From an uncultured Candidatus Saccharibacteria bacterium (GTDB taxonomy: Bacteria; Patescibacteriota; Minisyncoccia; JAHIHE01; JAGLIN01), in the NCBI GenBank assembly GCA_964553695.1, contig CAZKLR010000001.1, positions 1-36,395 on the forward strand: a DNA stretch of 36,395 nt. The letters run 5' to 3'. Below are positions 10,728-18,841 of the stretch, piece by piece. The position numbers were made by a program, and so were the translations under genes. The notes beneath the pieces were generated by a model. The model was not told the DNA's origin. It saw only the letters and a list, made by a program, of their open reading frames with translations, and made no database searches. How positions within the stretch are numbered: position 1 is the first letter of the stretch; the number at the start of each line of letters is the position of its first letter.

Positions 10728-11615
10728 ATGAAGAATAAAAAAATCATAAGCTTAACTGCAGTGTCGTTGGTTTTAGGGTCTACAATAGCAACTAGTAATG
10801 CTTCAAGCAGTATGGCTGCAACAAGAGGATCACAAACTCCTGCGGGAGTTTCTATGAGGATTCCTCAGGCGGAGCAAACGGCAATTGACAATGGCGACTA
10901 CAATGCTTGGAAAGCTGCCATCGAGTCTAGCGGAAACACTGACATTCTAAACTATGTTACCGAAGAAAATTTTGCAAGATATGTGGAAGCATTTAAATTG
11001 CGCGAATCCGGAGATATGGATGGATCAAAGGCTATTTTAGATGAGTTGGGGATTAAGATGTCTGGTCCAAAAGGCAAAGGAGACGAGGAGATGATGGAAC
11101 CTGTCTCGCAAGAAAATCGCGAAGCTTTGGAAAATGCAATCAAAAATGCCGATTATAGCGCATGGAAAAATATTATGGAAGAAATAAAAGATGAGAAGAT
11201 TGCAGATTATATTTCCGAAGAGAATTTTAATGTTATTGTTCGTGCCTATAAATTGCGAGCTAGCGGAGATAATGCAGGAGCAATGAAACTCTTAGAAAAT
11301 TCTAATATTCCTGGATTTATGTGTCTGTGTGGCGGTCCGATGATAAGGAATAATGAAGGATGGAATCACGAAGCTCTAATACAAACATACGAAAACAATG
11401 ACTATAACGCCTGGAAAACCTTAATGGAAAAGCGCGGTGGCGGAAAAATTTTGGAATTAGTGAATGCCTATAATTTTGCAAAATTTGCTCAAGCTAAGGT
11501 TCTTCAGTCGGAAGGCAAGGTAGCTGAAGCTAAGGCGATTATGGATGAGTTAGGATTTCCATTCCAAGAGAGAGGCATAAGGATGAAAAATTTTGCAAAT
11601 GCATCAGTTTTTTAG
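10728..11615 (+). CDS. secreted protein with three internal repeats
   Basis: Signal peptide MKNKKIISLTAVSLVLGSTIATSNA. Three copies of an about 65-aa unit with the core DY(N/S)AWK..(15-20 aa)..NF..(F/V)..A.KL..(S/E)G. Confidence 0.7.
   Translation: MKNKKIISLTAVSLVLGSTIATSNASSSMAATRGSQTPAGVSMRIPQAEQTAIDNGDYNAWKAAIESSGNTDILNYVTEENFARYVEAFKLRESGDMDGSKAILDELGIKMSGPKGKGDEEMMEPVSQENREALENAIKNADYSAWKNIMEEIKDEKIADYISEENFNVIVRAYKLRASGDNAGAMKLLENSNIPGFMCLCGGPMIRNNEGWNHEALIQTYENNDYNAWKTLMEKRGGGKILELVNAYNFAKFAQAKVLQSEGKVAEAKAIMDELGFPFQERGIRMKNFANASVF
10872..11564 (+). repeat. three diverged in-frame coding repeats (about 65 aa units) within the secreted protein gene
   Basis: Unit 1: GDYNAWKAAIESSGNTDILNYVTEENFARYVEAFKLRESGDMDGSKAILDELGI. 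Unit 2: ADYSAWKNIMEEIKDEKIADYISEENFNVIVRAYKLRASGDNAGAMKLLENSNI. Unit 3: NDYNAWKTLMEKRGGGKILELVNAYNFAKFAQAKVLQSEGKVAEAKAIMDELGF. Confidence 0.7.
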
Positions 11616-11801: not shown

Positions 11802-12968
11802 ATGAAATTTTCTCAGAGTGCTTTAGGTATACAGGAATCGTTTTTAAACAAGTGGGATTCTTCCATAAAACTTAGAAAGGCTGCAGGTGAAGACATTCTG
11901 CAGTTCAATTTGGGCCAGCCGGATTTTGCCTGTCCGGATTTTGTCAAAAAAATTATTGAAGAAGTAAACCAAAAAGATGGAAATAATTTTTATAATCATA
12001 CGGCAGGAATCGAAGGCGCTCGTAAGGCGATTGTTAAATTTCAAAAAGAGGTTTTTAATTCTGAATATAGCAAGGACGAGGTTGTTATTACAAATGGAGC
12101 GAAAGAGGCGATTTTCTTGGCTTTTGCTGCTCTGCTAAATCCTCAGGATGAGGTTATTGCAATTGCGCCTCACTGGCCGACTTATATTGAAGCTGTTAAA
12201 TTTTTAGGAGGCAAGCCAATAGTTGTGGATGCCGGCAAGGATTTTCATTTGAATATTGAGGCTATAAAAAATGCAATCGGAGAAAAAACCAGGGCAATTG
12301 TGATTAATAGCCCCAATAATCCAAGCGGAACTATTTATGGCGAGGAAGAATTTTCAAAAATAGCCGAATTGGCCGTCCAAAATGATTTGGTTGTGGTTTC
12401 GGATGAAGTTTACGGTTTGACCATTTTTGATGGTAAAAAACATATTTCCATTGCCGATTTTCCCGGTATGAGAGAGAGAACAGTCTTGATTGACGGTTTT
12501 TCTAAAACACTCTCTATGACCGGTTACAGGCTTGGATATGCTTTGGCTTCTCGTGAAATCATCAGTAACATGGTGAAAGTAAAAAGCAATATCAATGGGA
12601 ATACAAATTCCTTCTTTCAGATGGTTTTGGAAGAAGCGATCTTAAATCATTTCGATGAGTTTACAGCTTTCGTTGATTTCTCAAGGGAAAAGTATCTCGA
12701 GAGAAGAGATTTTCTATGTGAAAAATTGGCAGAAATGGGAATTGAGTTTGCAAGGCCAGATGGAACTTTTTATGTTTTTGCCAGGATTCCGGAAAAAGTG
12801 GGAAAAAAGTCTCAAGAATTTGCGGAATATTTATTAGAGCAGACAGGAGTGGCGGTAGCGCCGGGAATATTTTTTGGAAAGAATTATGATAATTATTTCC
12901 GCATTTCTTTCGGCACGTCTATGGAAGATATAAAGAAAGGGATAGAAAGGATGAGAAAAATTTTATAG
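11802..12968 (+). CDS. pyridoxal-phosphate-dependent aminotransferase, class I/II (AspC-like; possibly aromatic/aspartate)
   Basis: 388 aa. Motifs: ITNGAKEAIFLAF, INSPNNPSGTIY, SDEVY, and the PLP-lysine motif GFSKTLSMTGYRLGY, then the RISF tail. Confidence 0.85.
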   Translation: MKFSQSALGIQESFLNKWDSSIKLRKAAGEDILQFNLGQPDFACPDFVKKIIEEVNQKDGNNFYNHTAGIEGARKAIVKFQKEVFNSEYSKDEVVITNGAKEAIFLAFAALLNPQDEVIAIAPHWPTYIEAVKFLGGKPIVVDAGKDFHLNIEAIKNAIGEKTRAIVINSPNNPSGTIYGEEEFSKIAELAVQNDLVVVSDEVYGLTIFDGKKHISIADFPGMRERTVLIDGFSKTLSMTGYRLGYALASREIISNMVKVKSNINGNTNSFFQMVLEEAILNHFDEFTAFVDFSREKYLERRDFLCEKLAEMGIEFARPDGTFYVFARIPEKVGKKSQEFAEYLLEQTGVAVAPGIFFGKNYDNYFRISFGTSMEDIKKGIERMRKIL

Positions 12969-13015
12969 CTTTATAAGGGGTGAATTGCCTTTTATCTTCG
13001 AAATAGTTTAGGCTA

Positions 13016-13055
13016 AAGGTCGGATTCTTCAACGCTTGAATCTGACCTTCTATTT
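13016..13055 (+). terminator. rho-independent terminator after the aminotransferase gene
   Basis: 12-bp stem AAGGTCGGATTC (13016-13027) / GAATCTGACCTT (13038-13049) with one G-U pair, followed by a weak T tract CTATTT. Confidence 0.5.
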
Positions 13056-13081
13056 GACAAACTTTTTGAAATGACTATAAT
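13054..13081 (+). promoter_or_regulatory. consensus sigma70 promoter of leader element A
   Basis: Exact TTGACA (13054-13059), 16-nt spacer, exact TATAAT (13076-13081). Confidence 0.65.
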
Positions 13082-13102
13082 ATCTTTATATTAAGCGAAA
13101 TC

Positions 13103-13165
13103 ATGAGCCACAACATAAGCAACAAATTCTATTTCTTTTATTTTTTTAGCCATCACTTGAGATAG
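13103..13165 (+). CDS. Phe/Tyr-rich leader peptide A (MSHNISNKFYFFYFFSHHLR)
   Basis: 20-codon ORF. Codons 9-15 are TTC TAT TTC TTT TAT TTT TTT. A paralogous peptide occurs at 14477-14530. The stop codon is embedded in the antiterminator strand. No clear SD. Confidence 0.5.
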   Translation: MSHNISNKFYFFYFFSHHLR

Positions 13166-13197
13166 GTCGCTTTTGCCGTAGCTTATAAAATGCGAAA

Positions 13198-13225
13198 CAG
13201 CCCATCTCAAGAGGGCTGATTTTTT
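13198..13225 (+). terminator. attenuator terminator of leader A
   Basis: CAGCCC (13198-13203) / GGGCTG (13213-13218), loop ATCTCAAGA, then ATTTTTT. The segment CCCATCTCAAG (13201-13211) is complementary to CTTGAGATAGG (13156-13166). Confidence 0.6.
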
Positions 13226-13370
13226 ATGTGCTTAATTTCGAGTTTTGATTTATAAAAATAAAAGCTCAAAAGTAAGCATAAGATTTCAACTTTACATCGT
13301 TTAAAGCTTACTGGTATTGTTCGTTAAAAAGAAAAATATAAAACAAAAATAAAATAGGGAACTGATAGAT

Positions 13371-13940
13371 ATGGAAAAAAATAAATATGGACAAGGCAGA
13401 ATGGTTATTTATATTGGTGAAAATCTACAACCTCATGTTATTAGATATTTTCTTGAGGGATTGGCAATGAAGGCAAACGGAGGAGGGATAATTTCTCCTG
13501 TTTCATTTACATTGTTAGATGCTTCTGGAAGAACATTGGAGGCTAGAGGATCTGTAGAGAAAATAAAAGAGATAGTAGACATCATATCTAATTCCATTTT
13601 TCTTGAAGACAGGATTTGTCTTTTTGGAGTTAAATCAGATAAAGCTATCCATTATTTCTCTTTTGCGGCTGATTACTTTAATAAGCGCACTGGTTCCGTG
13701 GGGTTCTGCAAAGACTATTTCCCCGGTTTTATAAAGATAAGAAAAGGTGCTACTGCTCTAGAAAAAGTAATGAGCGCATTTCGAGGGATTATTTTTGACC
13801 CTTTAGAAGTTATAGAAATAGACAAAAAGGGAAAAATAGTTTTATTACAACAGGAAATTGAAGAAAAGGAACTTACTAAAAAAAGGCCGATTGATAAATT
13901 TCAAGATGTGGCAAAAGGATTAATTTCTCAGGAGGTTTAA
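13371..13940 (+). CDS. hypothetical protein (189 aa), first gene of module A
   Basis: ORF with coding-like composition. It is tightly followed by the next gene. I recognise no motif. Confidence 0.55.
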   Translation: MEKNKYGQGRMVIYIGENLQPHVIRYFLEGLAMKANGGGIISPVSFTLLDASGRTLEARGSVEKIKEIVDIISNSIFLEDRICLFGVKSDKAIHYFSFAADYFNKRTGSVGFCKDYFPGFIKIRKGATALEKVMSAFRGIIFDPLEVIEIDKKGKIVLLQQEIEEKELTKKRPIDKFQDVAKGLISQEV

Positions 13941-13943
13941 ATA

Positions 13944-14387
13944 ATGAGCGAAATTCCGAAGCCTATTAGTTATTTTAATGATGTCTTTAGTCTTGTTAGT
14001 GAGATTCAACAGAAGCATAGTATTGCGAAAAAATCACAGGGAGCTAAAAAGGATAAATATAAAAAATGGGCCACAAAGCTATCATTTATTCTAGAAAGAA
14101 AAATAGAAGCAACAGAAAAACTAGGAATGGAGATGGCACATGTTAGGGCCATTCTTGTTAAAGCCAATAGAACTAAGAGTTGCGGTAATCTAGAATTATT
14201 TTCAGACTTAATTCAGATGGCTATAAATATAGCAAAAAAGACAAAACTATCAGAACAAATATTACTAAGGTGTTCAAGCGAGGATATTCTTGCTCTTCTG
14301 AAAGAAAATCCAGAAAGAGTGATAGTATTTAAGGCGGGGGAACTGATGAAAATAAAAATTAAGGAGGTGAAAAGCAATGAATTTTAA
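13944..14387 (+). CDS. hypothetical protein (147 aa), second gene of module A
   Basis: Strong SD AGGAGG lies 8 nt upstream of ATG 13944. The C-terminal about 60 aa are weakly similar to the 95-aa product of 14732-15019. Confidence 0.6.
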   Translation: MSEIPKPISYFNDVFSLVSEIQQKHSIAKKSQGAKKDKYKKWATKLSFILERKIEATEKLGMEMAHVRAILVKANRTKSCGNLELFSDLIQMAINIAKKTKLSEQILLRCSSEDILALLKENPERVIVFKAGELMKIKIKEVKSNEF

Positions 14388-14388
14388 C

Positions 14389-14422
14389 GGACATAGGGGA
14401 ATAATCCTCCATGTCCTATTTT
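14389..14422 (+). terminator. rho-independent terminator ending module A
   Basis: GGACAT (14389-14394) / ATGTCC (14411-14416), with a possible inner extension AGGGG/CCTCC, followed by TATTTT. Confidence 0.5.
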
Positions 14423-14423
14423 A

Positions 14424-14451
14424 TTGACAAGGTGTGATATTTTGTTATAAT
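14424..14451 (+). promoter_or_regulatory. consensus sigma70 promoter of leader element B
   Basis: Exact TTGACA (14424-14429), 16-nt spacer, exact TATAAT (14446-14451). Confidence 0.65.
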
Positions 14452-14476
14452 TTTTTTGATGTTTTAGATTATTATT

Positions 14477-14530
14477 ATGAACCACAATACAAACAACCAA
14501 TTCTTCTTTTTCTTTTTTAGCCAGCTCTAG
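14477..14530 (+). CDS. Phe-rich leader peptide B (MNHNTNNQFFFFFFSQL)
   Basis: 17-codon ORF. Codons 9-14 are TTC TTC TTT TTC TTT TTT. It is alignable with leader A at both peptide and nucleotide level. Confidence 0.5.
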   Translation: MNHNTNNQFFFFFFSQL

Positions 14531-14562
14531 GAGATAGGTCGTTTTTGTTGAAACTTTAAATG

Positions 14563-14591
14563 AATGGCCCATCTCAAGAGGCTGTTTTTTT
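14563..14591 (+). terminator. attenuator terminator of leader B
   Basis: AATGGCC (14563-14569) / GGCTGTT (14580-14586), 7 bp including two G-U pairs, loop CATCTCAAGA, then a T-run to 14591. It is weaker than copy A. The G-U pairs are valid only on the + strand. Confidence 0.5.
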
Positions 14592-14731
14592 ACGTTTCGG
14601 ATTCAGCTCTTAGAACTTTTAGAAAATTCCAGGAGGTAAATCTGAAATGTCGGTTTATCATTTTGTTCGTTTAAAAAACTACAAAAATAAGATTTATAAA
14701 AATATAAATAGAATTTACAGGTGAAACAAAT

Positions 14732-15019
14732 ATGCAAACTCAATCTTTGCAGAATACGGGTGTTGGAAAAGAGGAATGCTTAAAAAAAATAAAAAAGTTA
14801 CTTCAAGTAACAAAAGAGGCACAAGAAAAAAATCTTGTAGAAGTTTTTTATCGCTCCTTAAGTTTCGCAATTTATTACATGAAGGAGCTGAAGGTATGTG
14901 ATATTTTTCTTAATTCTGATCCTAAAGATTTTTGTGCTTTGTGCGGAGAAGAAGCAATAAATTTGGTAGTTTTTTCCGAAGAAGACAGTCAAATAAAACT
15001 GTGCATCAAAAAAGAATAA
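14732..15019 (+). CDS. hypothetical protein (95 aa), module B
   Basis: SD AGGTGA lies 7 nt upstream of the ATG. It is weakly similar to the C-terminal part of the 147-aa protein (..D..AL..E.....VVF.......IK..). Confidence 0.55.
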   Translation: MQTQSLQNTGVGKEECLKKIKKLLQVTKEAQEKNLVEVFYRSLSFAIYYMKELKVCDIFLNSDPKDFCALCGEEAINLVVFSEEDSQIKLCIKKE

Positions 15020-15028
15020 AAATAGTCT

Positions 15029-15080
15029 AAAAAGACATGGTTTGCAAAAAATGCAAATGGCCATGTCTTTTTCTTTTTTT
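15029..15080. terminator. bidirectional terminator between module B and pheA
   Basis: AAGACATGG/CCATGTCTT plus TTTGCA/TGCAAA helices around an AAAAA loop. An A-run lies upstream and TTTTTCTTTTTTT lies downstream. Confidence 0.7.
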
Positions 15081-15088
15081 GTACGATT

Positions 15089-15655
15089 TTATTTTTCCAC
15101 TGCCAAAAAACTGGTGAAATTGAATTTTAGGTCTTGTACTCCTTTTTCCAATACTTCCAGTCCATAAAGCTCAGCACAGCTCTCGGGAGCGAGGACGGCG
15201 GTACTATTTGGCAAGATTCCTTCGGAAAGGTCTTTGGCGGCTTTGGCGGTGTCGTCGCGCTGTTCAATGGCGGCGGATGGCCAGTTTCTTTTGATATACA
15301 TCTTGCATTGTTTGATCGCTTGGTCGTGAGAGGCAATGGTCTCAATGTTTTCTTTTTTGATTCCGGGTTTGACTAATAGGCAATGAATTACGGGAATCTC
15401 GAAAAGCTCCCGGATGTTAAATATATAGCGGCTCATCGCATATACGCTTTCGATAACTATGCCTCCGTTGGAGTTTTCGATGGGGAAAACACCCATATCT
15501 ATTTTTTTATTTTCCAGAGCATTAAGAACATTCTCTACGGAGATCAAATATTCAAGTTTGTAATTTTCAATTTTTTTGTTGCGGCAGTATTCCCTTGCGG
15601 CTTGTTCGGAAAAACTTCCGATTGCGCCGGAGACGCCGATTATTTTTTCTTGCAT
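15089..15655 (-). CDS. pheA: prephenate dehydratase, catalytic PDT domain only (no ACT domain)
   Basis: 188 aa. Motifs: IGVSGAIGSFSEQAAREY, FPIENSNGGIVIESV, IASHDQAIKQC. The length is too short for the usual C-terminal ACT regulatory domain. Confidence 0.8.
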   Translation of the reverse strand: MQEKIIGVSGAIGSFSEQAAREYCRNKKIENYKLEYLISVENVLNALENKKIDMGVFPIENSNGGIVIESVYAMSRYIFNIRELFEIPVIHCLLVKPGIKKENIETIASHDQAIKQCKMYIKRNWPSAAIEQRDDTAKAAKDLSEGILPNSTAVLAPESCAELYGLEVLEKGVQDLKFNFTSFLAVEK

Positions 15656-16410
15656 ATCTTCTTATCTAGTTTATTAAGTTCTTTCAGAAATTTATTTCTG
15701 GTTTTTGCGGCATAAGGATTCAAGGTTTGCATATCAAGGAAAAGCTGCTCGGGATCATCTTTGACTTCCAAAATGATGTCTTTGAGTCGTTTGGCCGAAG
15801 GTGTGGTGAAAGCAAAGCCTTCAAGAGGTATGGTTTGGGCGGCTGCTCTTGAAAAGAAATGAGTCAGTGATTGTGTGTAGGCCATTATTTCGTCATGTTT
15901 TTTCGCCGATACTTCTTTTATATCAAGTCCCATATGCTTGAAAATTGATTTTATTTCTTGGTAACTTTTCTTTTTTATTCTTTCAGGGCATAGGACAATT
16001 TGAAGATCTTTGATTCCTTTTTTTCCGCTTTGCGGACCGAAAAGCGGGTGAGTACCAAGAATCTGCGCGTCTTTCGGGAGTATTTTTTTCATTTCTTTCA
16101 AAGGAAAAACTTTTACCGAACAGACATCAAAAACTATACAGTTTTTTTTGATTTTGCTGCGGATATCATTTAATACGCTTGTAATCTCTGAAATAGGCAT
16201 AGAGAGCATTATGATGTCTTGCTGGCAAACTTCTTCCATTGAAGAATAAGTGACCCCCAGCCTTTTTGCCGTTTCACTTTTATTGCTTTTGCTGGTAATA
16301 TAAATTTCCGAGAAAAAAGGTTTAAGATGCGGAATAAAAAACTCAGCAAATTGTCCTATTCCGATGATGCCTAAAGTTTTTTTATTGCCTTTTGTTGTAT
16401 TATTTGTCAT
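15640..16410 (-). CDS. tyrA: prephenate/arogenate dehydrogenase
   Basis: 256 aa. N-terminal Rossmann motif LGIIGIGQFAEFF, then DVCSVK and GTHPLFGP motifs. It overlaps the pheA start by 16 nt. Confidence 0.75.
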   Translation of the reverse strand: MTNNTTKGNKKTLGIIGIGQFAEFFIPHLKPFFSEIYITSKSNKSETAKRLGVTYSSMEEVCQQDIIMLSMPISEITSVLNDIRSKIKKNCIVFDVCSVKVFPLKEMKKILPKDAQILGTHPLFGPQSGKKGIKDLQIVLCPERIKKKSYQEIKSIFKHMGLDIKEVSAKKHDEIMAYTQSLTHFFSRAAAQTIPLEGFAFTTPSAKRLKDIILEVKDDPEQLFLDMQTLNPYAAKTRNKFLKELNKLDKKICKKK

Positions 16411-16585
16411 TCTTTTGATTCTTAAAGAAGAAAATTGCCATTATTAGCCAGAAGCCGCAAATAATAATCGTTATAATTAGGTCTGCCGGTTTGGAAAAGT
16501 CTGGCGGGGTGGAAATAAATAAAGCCAAGAGCAGTATAAACCAAATTGCTTCTAGAAGATAATATGACTTTGATATTTTTTTCAT
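16400..16585 (-). CDS. small hypothetical 2-TM membrane protein
   Basis: 61-aa ORF with two hydrophobic helices. It overlaps the tyrA start by 11 nt. Confidence 0.35.
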   Translation of the reverse strand: MKKISKSYYLLEAIWFILLLALFISTPPDFSKPADLIITIIICGFWLIMAIFFFKNQKNDK

Positions 16586-16621
16586 ATTCTATTTTTATAA
16601 TAAAGTGACTGGAAATTGTGT

Positions 16622-18841
16622 TTAATCTTCCTTTTCATGTTTACATTCTTTGTTTGAGCAGACTACTTTACCTTTGGCGGCGAATACCATAAGGCTGCTG
16701 CACTCCGGACATTTTTCGCCAGTTGGTTTTTGCCACATTGCAAACTTGCATTCCGGATAATTATTACAGCCGTAGAAAGCGCGTCCCGCCTTGGATTTTT
16801 TTTCAACAATATCGCCCTTGCCGCATTCCGGACATTTGGCTCCGGTAGGTTTTGCCATAGATTTAATGTTCTTGCATTCCGGATAGCCTGAGCAGCCGAG
16901 GAATGCTCCGAAGCGTCCGCGTTTTACAACCATCGGTTTGCCGCATTTTTCACAGACTTCGCCTGAGAATTCTTCTATTAACTTCTTTTCTTCACCCATT
17001 GGTCTTGTGGTTTTGCAGGTTGGATAATTGCTACAGGCCATAAACTTGCCAAAACGTCCCAATTTGATGACCATCGGCGAGCCGCATTTTTCACATTTCT
17101 CATCCGTCTTTTCTTCGGTTATAGCTTTTTTATCAATCTCTTTTTCTTTGAGGTTAAGATTGTCCATAAACGGGTCATAGAAATCTTCCATCAGCTTGCG
17201 CCATTCGCATTCTCCTTCAGCTACTTTATCCAAATCCTCTTCCATTTTAGCCGTAAATTCTATATCAACAATGTCTGGAAAATGTTCGACCAAGAAGTCG
17301 TTGACAATGAAGCCTATTTCTTCCGGCATAAATCTTTTTTCTTCTTTTTTAACATAGCCTCGTTCTTGGATAGTTGAAATAATTGGGGCATAAGTAGAAG
17401 GTCTTCCTATACCGAATTCTTCCAAGGCTTTGACCAGACTGGCTTCATTGTATCTTGCCGGAGGTTGAGTAAAATGCTGTTCAGCAAGCACTTTGAGAAG
17501 ATCAAGCTCTTCCTTCTCTTTGAGTTCCGGAAAGATAGTCTCTTCACTTTTTATTGGGTAAACGCGCAAAAATCCGTCGAATTTTAGCGTTGAACCGCTG
17601 GAACGGAGCGTATATTTCCCAGCCTTAATTTCTATAGTCGTGAGATCGCTAACTGCTGGAGTCATTTGAGAGGCGAGCATACGCTGCCAAATAAGTGTAT
17701 AGAGCTTATATTGTTTAGGATCAAGATATTCTTTGATACTCTCCGGGGTTCGTGAAGGATCGGTTGGCCGGATTGCTTCATGAGCCTCCTGCGCGCCTTT
17801 GCTTTTGGTCTTAAAATGTCTTTCTTCGGCATATTCCGGGCCAAAGTGGTTGGTAATATAATTCTTGGCCGTATCCAGAGATTCGCGGCTTAAATTTAAT
17901 GAGTCGGTACGCATATAGGTAATAAGACCGACAGCACCGCCTTTGCCAAGCTGAATTCCTTCGTAGAGCTGCTGTGCGATCATCATAGTTTGTTTAGCGC
18001 TATAACCCAGACGATTGCCTGCGGCCTGCTGAAGCGTGCTGGTGGTGAAAGGCGGAAGGGGATTCTTTTTAGTTTCTTTCTTTTCGATTTTTTCTATTAC
18101 GTATTTTTCTTTCTCCAGGTCCTCTTTGATCTTGTCAGCTTCATCTTTAGTCTTAATATCGAGTTTTTTCAGAGATTTATTTTCGATTTTGACTAGCTTG
18201 GCCAGAAAATTCTCCTTGCTATCTTTTTTTGCAAGGTCGGTATTTATTTCCCAATATTCATCCGGTTTAAATTTCTGAATTTCTCGTTCGCGTTCTACGA
18301 TAAGTCTCACTGCAACAGACTGGACTCTTCCGGCAGACAGACCGTAACGAATTTTTTTCCACAAAAAAGGTGAAAGTTTATACCCCACAAGACGGTCTAA
18401 AATTCTTCGCGCTTGTTGAGCATCTACTAAATTGAGATCCAGTTGGCGCGGATGTTTAAGCGCTTCCAAAATGGCTCCTTTGGTAATTTCATGGAATACT
18501 ATGCGGCTGTACCCTTTTTTGGTCTTACTGTTTCCGGTAAGATCAAGTCCAAGGATTTGCGCCAAGTGCCAGGAAATTGCTTCTCCTTCGCGGTCTTCAT
18601 CGCTTGCAAGAATAACTTCGTCGGAATCTTTGGCAATTTTTTTAAGCTCCGAGGCGATTTTTTTGGATTTCGGACTTATGACATATTCCGGTTCAAAGTC
18701 ATTTTCAACATCCACTCCCAGTTTGCTTTTAGGGAGGTCGCGCAGATGGCCAAAGGAAGATTTAACGGTATAGTTTTTATCTAGAAATTTGGAAATGGTT
18801 TTCGCTTTGGTGGGCGATTCCACAATGATAAGTTTTTTCAT
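16622..18841 (-). CDS. topA: DNA topoisomerase I
   Basis: 739 aa. Toprim N-terminus MKKLIIVESPTKAKTISKFL, then DEDREGEAISWH, and the active-site region GLITYMRTDS. Four C-terminal C4 zinc ribbons (CxxC..CxxC) are present. Confidence 0.95.
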   Translation of the reverse strand: MKKLIIVESPTKAKTISKFLDKNYTVKSSFGHLRDLPKSKLGVDVENDFEPEYVISPKSKKIASELKKIAKDSDEVILASDEDREGEAISWHLAQILGLDLTGNSKTKKGYSRIVFHEITKGAILEALKHPRQLDLNLVDAQQARRILDRLVGYKLSPFLWKKIRYGLSAGRVQSVAVRLIVEREREIQKFKPDEYWEINTDLAKKDSKENFLAKLVKIENKSLKKLDIKTKDEADKIKEDLEKEKYVIEKIEKKETKKNPLPPFTTSTLQQAAGNRLGYSAKQTMMIAQQLYEGIQLGKGGAVGLITYMRTDSLNLSRESLDTAKNYITNHFGPEYAEERHFKTKSKGAQEAHEAIRPTDPSRTPESIKEYLDPKQYKLYTLIWQRMLASQMTPAVSDLTTIEIKAGKYTLRSSGSTLKFDGFLRVYPIKSEETIFPELKEKEELDLLKVLAEQHFTQPPARYNEASLVKALEEFGIGRPSTYAPIISTIQERGYVKKEEKRFMPEEIGFIVNDFLVEHFPDIVDIEFTAKMEEDLDKVAEGECEWRKLMEDFYDPFMDNLNLKEKEIDKKAITEEKTDEKCEKCGSPMVIKLGRFGKFMACSNYPTCKTTRPMGEEKKLIEEFSGEVCEKCGKPMVVKRGRFGAFLGCSGYPECKNIKSMAKPTGAKCPECGKGDIVEKKSKAGRAFYGCNNYPECKFAMWQKPTGEKCPECSSLMVFAAKGKVVCSNKECKHEKED

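Follow-up and report, generated by a model that had tools for sequence, protein, structure and literature searches.

The closest described counterpart of the locus analyzed here is the pheL-pheA leader-peptide attenuator of gamma-proteobacteria, catalogued as Rfam RF01859 (PMC3082878). We identify a comparable design, in two tandem copies, in a 36,395-nucleotide stretch of contig CAZKLR010000001.1 (GenBank assembly GCA_964553695.1) from an uncultured Candidatus Saccharibacteria bacterium; this whole stretch is called the window below. As in pheL-pheA, a short leader open reading frame (ORF) with a run of Phe codons stands before an intrinsic terminator whose 5' arm has an alternative pairing partner upstream, read-through would be linked to the supply of Phe-tRNA, and in several relatives of the window the controlled gene encodes a prephenate dehydratase (PDT), as it does in E. 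coli. We propose that the region comprises two tandem paralogous ribosome-mediated attenuators driving non-catalytic proteins of aromatic amino acid starvation, an account that we judge likely as a whole. We are highly confident of its gene models, regulation and family structure, and we give the non-catalytic starvation-response role of the proteins an even chance. Control by a shortage of charged Phe- and Tyr-tRNA is well supported, with the direction of the switch predicted from the nucleotide sequence.

Two paralogous modules lie between an aminotransferase gene (11802-12968) and the convergent pheA-tyrA genes (15089-16410), and each consists of a promoter, a leader carrying Phe codons and a terminator. 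Module A continues with a 189-aa and a 147-aa ORF, the latter preceded by the Shine-Dalgarno (SD) sequence AGGAGG, and ends in a terminator; module B continues with a 95-aa ORF and ends in a palindrome. The sequence-only reading had described both layouts and their place between the aminotransferase and pheA-tyrA, and our analysis bears it out, coordinate by coordinate for the modules and by Pfam assignment for the flanking genes. All elements of the two modules described here are on the forward strand. Promoter A (13054-13081, TTGACA-N16-TATAAT) matches the consensus at 12/12 positions and is conserved in the aligned relatives; promoter B (14424-14451, TTGACA-N16-TG-TATAAT) also matches at 12/12 and has an extended -10 TG. 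These are the only perfect sigma-70 matches in the 2.5 kb scanned. The leader ORFs start 22-26 nt downstream of the promoters: leader A (13103-13165, MSHNISNKFYFFYFFSHHLR) has five Phe and two Tyr codons in its run (FYFFYFF), and leader B (14477-14530, MNHNTNNQFFFFFFSQL) has six Phe codons (FFFFFF). Leader regions A and B can be aligned across about 160 nt, and the whole A/B leader alignment, 362 columns including the 3' flanks, has a mean column identity of 77%. Attenuator A (13159-13225) is made up of an antiterminator 5' arm, GAGAUAGGUCG at 13159-13169, which includes the leader stop codon, and a terminator, CAGCCCAUCUCAAGAGGGCUG with its U-tract at 13198-13225, with a folding energy of -11.4 kcal/mol. 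Attenuator B (14530-14591) has its arm, GGAGAUAGGUCG, at 14530-14541 and its terminator and U-tract at 14565-14591, and its pairing is conserved according to RNAalifold. Both terminators are a hairpin followed by U6-7.

In the mechanism we propose, the antiterminator 5' arm contains the leader stop codon in A and has it 3 nt upstream in B, and this arm would compete with the intrinsic terminator. With charged Phe-tRNA (for A, also Tyr-tRNA) in plentiful supply, the ribosome at the stop codon would cover the arm, so that the terminator would form and transcription would stop. With charged tRNA scarce, the ribosome would stall 11-12 nt upstream, leaving the antiterminator free to form and transcription to read through. 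Read-through of A would then give the translationally coupled 189-aa protein (family fam1) and 147-aa protein, and read-through of B the 95-aa protein (family fam95). These proteins would act as non-catalytic binding or regulatory proteins of an aromatic amino acid starvation response, not as pathway enzymes; we favor such a role because they evolve fast and keep no conserved polar residues.

The same leader is present in about 25 related loci (given L numbers here) with homologous peptides, such as MNSNTSNKFFFYFFSHHLR, MNYNISNWFFFYFSRHLR, MNYINNNWFFFFSRQLR and MNYTKNSQFFFFSFFSRHMR, and in these loci the Phe run is maintained through synonymous TTT/TTC changes. Nine of the loci are in genomes, and scanning metagenome contigs for the exact pattern gave about 14 more; L023, L024, L025, L099, L101 and L102 were found in Logan, ENA and JGI contigs, four of which contributed homologous leader peptides. 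About 55 of the 69 metagenome pattern matches were due to chance and were removed by requiring a leader ORF and a U-tract, and four pattern matches in viral contigs (IMG/VR) were set aside as not being leaders, none having a leader ORF or a terminator. Across 21 distinct leaders, RNAalifold finds eight pairs between GNGAUAGGU, which includes the leader stop codon, and the terminator 5' arm. The antiterminator pair 74-127 is AU in 11 leaders, CG in nine and AG in one, and three pairs show GU changes. All 21 have a hairpin and U-tract with stem sequences that differ from one another (CAGCCC/GGGCUG, CAGCCU/AGGCUG, CCAUC/GAUGG and GGCCU/AGGCU, for example), yet the stems always fold and always have the U-tract 3' of them. 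The distance from the last Phe or Tyr codon of the run to the arm is 11-12 nt in 19/20 leaders; the figure for the outlier, L072, is due to one extra downstream Tyr codon. The stop codon sits at +4 within the arm in A-type leaders and at -3 in B-type leaders. The B type is common to the window and L052 and always precedes a fam95 gene; the L054 leader is probably of this type too, judging from its pattern match and its cargo. The regulatory codons themselves switch within the family, from mixed Phe/Tyr in A to Phe-only in B and Tyr-only in L101, where the leader before fam95 (L101 500-660) encodes MNIKIGNRYYLYISSNPKR, with the run YYLY, and keeps the same antiterminator and terminator design. 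Our literature search found no relevant paper on leader peptides or PDT in the Candidate Phyla Radiation (CPR).

A further hairpin follows each attenuator. Post-terminator hairpin A (13227-13284), a single-sequence fold, lies directly 3' of the terminator U-tract in the 5' untranslated region (UTR), and post-terminator hairpin B (14592-14652) has the same position and architecture with another sequence. In ten A-type loci RNAalifold supports 21 pairs, 11 of them with compensatory double changes. A long hairpin right after the leader-terminator U-tract is also found in L001, L002, L004, L022, L024, L025, L052, L081 and L098, and equivalents of hairpin B in L052B, L054 and L101; B-type leaders and those of the L008/L009/L041 type carry hairpins of other sequence at the same place. 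No U-tract is found 3' of the post-terminator hairpins, and they could serve as a UTR stabilizer, a processing site or a binding site.

The genes behind this leader differ widely among relatives. Aminotransferase genes follow it in L005/L057, L008 and L073, with a second paralog in L004 and another copy in L025, where it comes behind fam1. The cargo is full-length PheA, ACT domain included, in L008, L009, L075 and L089, and in the metagenome contigs L041 and L072 it is an ATP-grasp protein (389 aa) with an M20 peptidase (359 aa), a pairing that suggests the regulon has a branch for Phe salvage based on peptides or amides. Because the leader elsewhere controls aminotransferases, ACT-containing PheA and the ATP-grasp/M20 pair, it places the genes behind it in a Phe-supply regulon. 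The closest relatives of the window carry fam1, fam95 or other small orphan ORFs in the slot next to pheA: fam1 is cargo in the window, L099, L024, L102, L025, L098, L052, L002, L022 and L077, and fam95 in the window, L052, L024, L102, L054 and L101. Both families are always behind such a leader and have never been seen away from it, every fam1 member being the first gene after one, and their position is nearly always the slot that separates the aminotransferase gene from the convergent pheA. In L077, fam1 has no adjacent pheA.

The fam1 gene (13371-13940), first of module A, encodes a protein that, like the 147-aa and 95-aa proteins, Pfam, NCBIfam, PHROG and PADLOC left without a match above noise; Pfam run on eight fam1 members at E up to 10 also gave none. 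A HMMER scan of 1.84 billion representative proteins returned three true relatives, P0001 (99% identity), P0002 (42%) and P0004 (27%), and the family has members in L024/L102, L025, L098, L052, L002, L022 and L077, those of L098, L102, L052, L002, L022 and L077 having come from profile searches and locus mining. A fourth HMMER match, P0003 (1004 aa, Cys-rich, 14 repeats), was discarded as a repeat artefact. Only M1 and A100 are invariant across the eight members, and identity within the family is 14-40% among genomes whose PheA proteins are 76-88% identical. The AlphaFold 2 (AF2) model, built from a very shallow alignment, has a mean predicted local distance difference test score (pLDDT) of 77 and a predicted template modeling score (pTM) of 0.73; its strands (E) and helices (H) run E-H-E-E-H-E-E and then H-E-E-H-E, with a disordered tail at residues 159-189. 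The two halves match each other in hhalign with a probability of 95.9% (E 5e-9), and the internal-repeat controls, one reversed and 40 column-shuffled, reached at most 0.6%. From this match, its clean controls and the order of elements in the model, in which each half is beta-alpha-beta-beta-alpha-beta, we conclude that fam1 is an internal tandem duplication of an alpha/beta unit, the halves each reading as ferredoxin-like. The Phe content of fam1 (4.6-8.5%) is at or above the background of 4.7%, and the idea that the cargo proteins spare Phe was rejected on this ground.

The end of fam1 also carries information for its neighbor. Its last codons, CAG GAG GTT, hold the SD of the next gene, with AGGAGG 8 nt before the 147-aa ATG, and the conserved C-terminal 'QEV' of the family is the translation of CAGGAGGT, that is, of this SD (window 13929-13946; L024 880-900; L025 838-850). 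In L025, the fam1 stop codon overlaps the aminotransferase ATG (ATGA). Together with the 3-nt spacing to the 147-aa ORF, these features indicate that fam1 and the gene following it are tightly coupled in translation, as predicted from their sequences. In L099 and L100, a 1-nt difference in an A-run frameshifts the fam1 C-terminal tail, which then ends in TKKGRLINFKMWQKD (L099 9930-9980 versus window 13880-13940); this tail is predicted to be disordered (pLDDT below 50), and the frameshift is either an assembly error or a sign that the tail is dispensable.

The second gene of module A (13944-14387) encodes the 147-aa protein, which has a basic, Lys-rich N-terminal part, an isoelectric point of 9.6 and a C-terminal domain at about residues 74-142. 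Its only close homologs are P0013 (89% identity) and P0014 (67%). The fam95 gene (14732-15019), the cargo of module B, has homologs in L052_103 (56% identity), L024_119 and P0010 (33%, E 3e-12), L054_123 and an L101 ORF; the AF2 model of its product (pLDDT 83, pTM 0.72, again from a very shallow alignment) shows two long helices, short helices and a C-terminal beta-hairpin. A fam95 profile run against PDB sequences matched only de novo designed helical repeat proteins, which we rejected as an effect of helix composition. The sequence-only reading had noted a weak alignment of the 95-aa protein with the C-terminal part of the 147-aa protein. Pairwise BLASTP did not make it significant (no alignment in one run, E 0.65 in another), and profiles did support it: the 147-aa protein scores 17.4 bits against a hidden Markov model (HMM) built from four fam95 members, a value reached by 0/2989 shuffles (maximum 11.1), and hhalign of fam95 against the 147-aa family (fam147) gives E 7.7e-4 over 94 columns, but a probability of only 10%. 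On the strength of the shuffle test and the hhalign comparison, the C-terminal part of the 147-aa protein is most likely a distant paralog of fam95, visible with profiles only. An hhalign comparison of fam1, fam95, fam147, fam2', fam3, fam4 and the L006 ORFs with one another and with PheA, ACT and PDT domains yielded two matches, one between fam95 and fam147 and one between the two halves of fam1; a degenerate PheA or ACT remnant as the origin of fam1 was rejected, there being no match to PheA, ACT or PDT domains.

All three ORFs are real genes under purifying selection, as their ratios of nonsynonymous to synonymous substitution (dN/dS) and the confident AF2 models show. Measured against L099, a relative at a synonymous divergence (dS) of about 0.15-0.3, dN/dS is 0.40 for fam1, 0.31 for the 147-aa gene and 0.12 for fam95. 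N-terminal sequences and hydropathy (GRAVY) values show no signal peptide or membrane segment in any of the three proteins, which are predicted to be soluble and cytoplasmic. Both families are restricted to a Paceibacteria-like (CPR) clade among the 5.8 and 1.84 billion proteins searched. Gene order varies within this clade: in L024 and L102 a single leader is followed by fam1 and fam95; L052 lacks a 147-like gene and shows the order leader A, fam1, leader B, fam95; and the window, L099 and L101 have a 147-like gene, then a second leader, then fam95. The ancestral operon was most likely leader-fam1-fam95, the layout still seen in L024 and L102, and its duplication most likely gave rise to the two-module layout; in the simplest reading the duplication involved the leader together with fam95, and one fam95 copy would then have diverged to become the 147-aa gene.

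Several observations weigh against our account. The switch itself rests on the sequence and one compensatory pair, and the terminator B hairpin, at -5 to -8 kcal/mol, is weaker than that of A; the full long hairpin abutting the U-tract in module B reaches -23 kcal/mol. The term 'binding or regulatory' is an argument from the absence of catalytic signatures, and structure searches gave no significant match: neither Foldseek of the fam1 and fam95 models against PDB nor that of fam1 against BFVD gave a match with E below 0.01, the best structure match standing at E 0.017 with a template modeling (TM) score of about 0.2 and the best BFVD match for fam1 at E 0.023 (TM 0.24). The dN/dS values of fam1 and the 147-aa gene are two to ten times those of neighboring genes (0.01-0.20). 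The slot between the aminotransferase and pheA is hypervariable, with unrelated small ORF families behind the same leader (L002_102/L022_134, L001_125/L004_193 and, in L006/L007, families such as the 74-aa and 67-aa ORFs of L006), so that the cargo may have been captured opportunistically rather than being functionally tied to Phe. An L098 '161-aa ORF' was discarded as the antisense strand of pheA.

Opportunistic capture is a serious rival and deserves its own hearing. It holds that the ORFs are accessory cargo of a hypervariable slot, with Phe starvation a mere cue of nutrient-poor conditions and no role in aromatic metabolism; growth-arrest or toxin-antitoxin-like pairs and host-interaction factors of an episymbiont are the candidates. 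The slot does differ in content in nearly every relative, though the flanking genes are 57-99% identical, and the place behind the leader is taken by at least four small-ORF families unrelated to one another. The cargo proteins diverge fast, with elevated dN/dS, they come as small, translationally coupled two-gene units, and the families are confined to one clade. Yet the slot holds no integrase or transposase and bears no toxin-antitoxin, defense, phage or mobile-element signature. For the three proteins PADLOC gave 0 matches, Pfam no toxin-antitoxin or defense match, and PHROG matches only at E 0.026 or weaker. Phage or plasmid contexts, toxin-antitoxin folds and a loss of synteny with pheA were the findings that would have told against the sequence-only reading; the viral pattern matches are not leaders, BFVD and PHROG likewise offer no phage relative, and synteny with pheA is retained in most relatives. 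The constant association of fam1 and fam95 with the leader and the lack of signal peptides or membrane segments also speak against opportunistic capture, and the fam95 leader of L101 has switched from Phe to Tyr codons with its cargo kept, which argues for a specific link to aromatic amino acids. We consider capture of this kind fairly unlikely.

Roles closer to the pathway had been suggested by the sequence-only reading, which placed the proteins in phenylalanine/tyrosine supply, sensing or salvage and offered a non-canonical chorismate mutase or a regulator of the ACT-less PheA as possibilities. The regulatory and genomic tie, through leader, cargo and slot, holds; the specific guesses do not. 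The proteins might be trans-acting regulatory or ligand-sensing subunits for the ACT-less PheA, TyrA or aminotransferase, with the fam1 modules binding Phe or Tyr in place of ACT. The window PheA is indeed a PDT domain only, the fam1 halves are homologous and share the beta-alpha-beta-beta-alpha-beta order, fam1 or fam95 genes adjoin pheA in most relatives, and in sister lineages the same leader controls a PheA with its own ACT domain; the weak Foldseek matches of fam1 include tandem-ACT aspartate kinase regulatory (beta) subunits (3tvi, 2dt9, 5yei, 3ab4; E 0.045-0.18, TM about 0.2). But these matches are insignificant (E above 0.04, TM 0.2, root-mean-square deviation 15 Å) and mixed with RRM, KH, HMA, M16 and DUF54 proteins at TM about 0.2, and hhalign against ACT domains of related PheA proteins gave probabilities of at most 0.1% for fam1, each of its halves and fam3, and at most 0.8% for fam95 and fam147, with a positive control at 100%. 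ACT-less PheA also occurs in L001, L004, L005, L008 and L009 without fam1 or fam95, L077 has fam1 away from pheA, and one would expect a feedback subunit to change slowly and to retain its ligand-binding residues, of which fam1 keeps none. We find this subunit role quite unlikely. That one of the proteins is instead a missing enzyme, such as a non-canonical chorismate mutase or a supplier of prephenate or phenylpyruvate, we regard as very improbable. The window shows only the terminal Phe/Tyr steps, an upstream step being missing locally; the leader elsewhere controls true enzymes (aminotransferase, PDT, M20 peptidase); and the 95-aa protein is close to an AroQ mutase in size. None of the three proteins matches CM_2 (AroQ, PF01817) or AroH in Pfam or NCBIfam, however, and no chorismate mutase is among the top 50 Foldseek PDB matches of the fam1 or fam95 model. 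The fam95 model ends in a beta-hairpin where AroQ is all-helical, no charged or polar residue is conserved in either family, and the divergence of fam1 between genomes with PheA proteins of 76-88% identity is atypical of a housekeeping enzyme.

We therefore keep to tandem attenuators driving non-catalytic starvation proteins as the preferred account. A more specific version, in which fam1 and fam95 form a new CPR aromatic-starvation module composed of a tandem ferredoxin-like binding protein and a small partner, is speculative, and we rate it unlikely. Made only when charged Phe- or Tyr-tRNA is low, such a module would have the ACT-less PDT, TyrA or the aminotransferase as its target in trans; alternatively, it would help to secure aromatic amino acids by reprogramming the cell or the way it interacts with a host.

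The surroundings of the modules are those of a housekeeping stretch of low GC content (about 37%), with genes for DprA, Pth, a LytR-type protein, signal peptidase, HisRS, a HIT protein, a sigma factor, Hsp20 and TopA. GC content at 13001-15000 is 0.31-0.33 against 0.35-0.42 in the flanks, so the region is more AT-rich, as had been suggested from the letters alone; the dip is modest, and other parts of the window go equally low. Upstream of module A, and on the same strand, the class I/II aminotransferase gene (11802-12968, 388 aa; Pfam Aminotran_1_2, E 2.3e-68) probably forms its own transcription unit. Its best NCBIfam matches are aspartate and other aminotransferases, all under the equivalog cut-offs, and orthologs with 57-94% identity hold the same position in L001, L002, L004, L022, L052, L098 and L099. 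A hairpin located before promoter A and after the aminotransferase stop codon (13016-13049; AAGGTCGGATTC…GAATCTGACCTT, then CTATTT) is, from its sequence, probably the terminator that separates this gene from module A. Two further candidate terminators were read from the sequence: the hairpin GGACATAGGGG...CCTCCATGTCC with a T-rich run after the 147-aa ORF (14389-14425, forward strand), a probable terminator of module A that a strict terminator scan did not pick up and that has equivalents after the 147-like gene in L101 and L099; and a palindrome between an A-run and a T-run (15029-15073, assigned to neither strand) between the 95-aa ORF and pheA, a probable bidirectional terminator.

On the reverse strand, downstream of topA and convergent to the modules, lie pheA (15089-15655, 188 aa; Pfam PDT, E 3e-44, residues 6-187; no ACT domain found by Pfam) and the prephenate dehydrogenase gene tyrA (15640-16410, 256 aa; PDH_N and PDH_C). 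The nearest relatives of the window pheA are in metagenome-assembled genomes labeled Paceibacterota, Parcubacteria or Patescibacteria, with L001, L004 and L022 at 85-88% identity, and its position next to topA is conserved in L001-L010. L008 and L009 carry up to three PDT genes each, namely two ACT-less copies (67-69% and 57-59% identical to the window PheA) and a leader-controlled full-length PheA with ACT; the ACT-less PDT beside topA is the copy conserved across the clade. A 61-aa hydrophobic ORF on the reverse strand (16400-16585) overlaps the tyrA start and is conserved in L099 (95% identity, dN/dS 0.16), and for this reason it is probably a genuine gene, located between topA and tyrA and encoding a small membrane protein. 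In L099, about 3.5 kb of inserted sequence separates tyrA from topA (L099 12680-16130 versus window 16410-16622); this insertion, absent from the window, carries a 373-aa ORF, a 315-aa M28-like peptidase and two 75-aa ORFs. In a 295-aa protein encoded upstream of the aminotransferase (10728-11615, forward strand), the N-terminus resembles a signal peptide and the motif 'N-DY-AWK…E-NF' recurs in three internal repeats; tblastn returned multiple internal high-scoring segment pairs, and Pfam gave no match for this protein.

For roughly half of the proteins of CPR (Patescibacteria) bacteria no function is known, and both regulatory capacity and amino acid biosynthesis are thought to be slight in these organisms. 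In a Paceibacteria-like clade of this group, the locus presents a textbook-style Phe/Tyr leader-peptide attenuator family that is both conserved and diversified. The attenuator serves as a physiological label, marking the genes behind it as wanted when aromatic amino acids are short, and it turns two orphan protein families into concrete experimental targets with a testable physiological context. The locus also documents how a conserved riboregulator swaps its cargo, between enzymes and novel proteins, over short evolutionary distances. The starvation module, if true, would for the first time give a CPR-specific orphan family a physiological assignment, reached through an attenuator not described in the phylum.

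Set beside known proteins, fam1 comes closest to two groups. UPF0201/DUF54 (PDB 2pzz, 3d7a, 2nrq), described as archaea-specific and of a function not known (PMC2596488), is the only family matched by both sequence profile and Foldseek: a narrower fam1 profile (A5) matches MJ1564 (2pzz) at E 0.017, a match lost with the eight-member profile, and the Foldseek E values are 0.035 for 3d7a and 0.16 for 2nrq, with TM about 0.2. Like fam1, DUF54 is a small alpha/beta protein with almost no conserved residues (PMC2596488); fam1 has no match to Pfam PF01877, and we treat the link as a weak lead, not as membership. With the ACT modules of the PheA R-domain and of the aspartate kinase beta subunit, a tandem ACT, the fam1 model shares the order of elements in each half and their tandem arrangement, and fam1 is genomically tied to a pathway enzyme that lacks its usual ACT domain. 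Unlike them, it has no detectable sequence or profile relationship to PF01842, only insignificant structural matches, and neither the glycine-rich ligand loop nor any other conserved residue.

At the level of RNA, Rfam reports no family at its gathering score anywhere in the window, and the window leader is not a member of RF01859: the Phe_leader model aligns at 13116-13225 with 19.9 bits (E 3.4) against a gathering score of 55. Other Rfam matches by E value, to miRNA and small RNA families, were dismissed as chance matches that reflect the hairpins. The pheL-pheA attenuator and the one described here differ in phylum, the latter being of Patescibacteria/CPR, and in geometry, which is simpler here, with the stop codon inside the antiterminator arm. 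Here, too, a conserved extra hairpin follows the terminator, the switch is duplicated in tandem, mixed Phe/Tyr and Tyr-only variants occur, and the cargo in the window consists of orphan proteins rather than biosynthetic enzymes. The regulon is accordingly of a known kind; what is new is its CPR host, its tandem duplication and its orphan-protein cargo.

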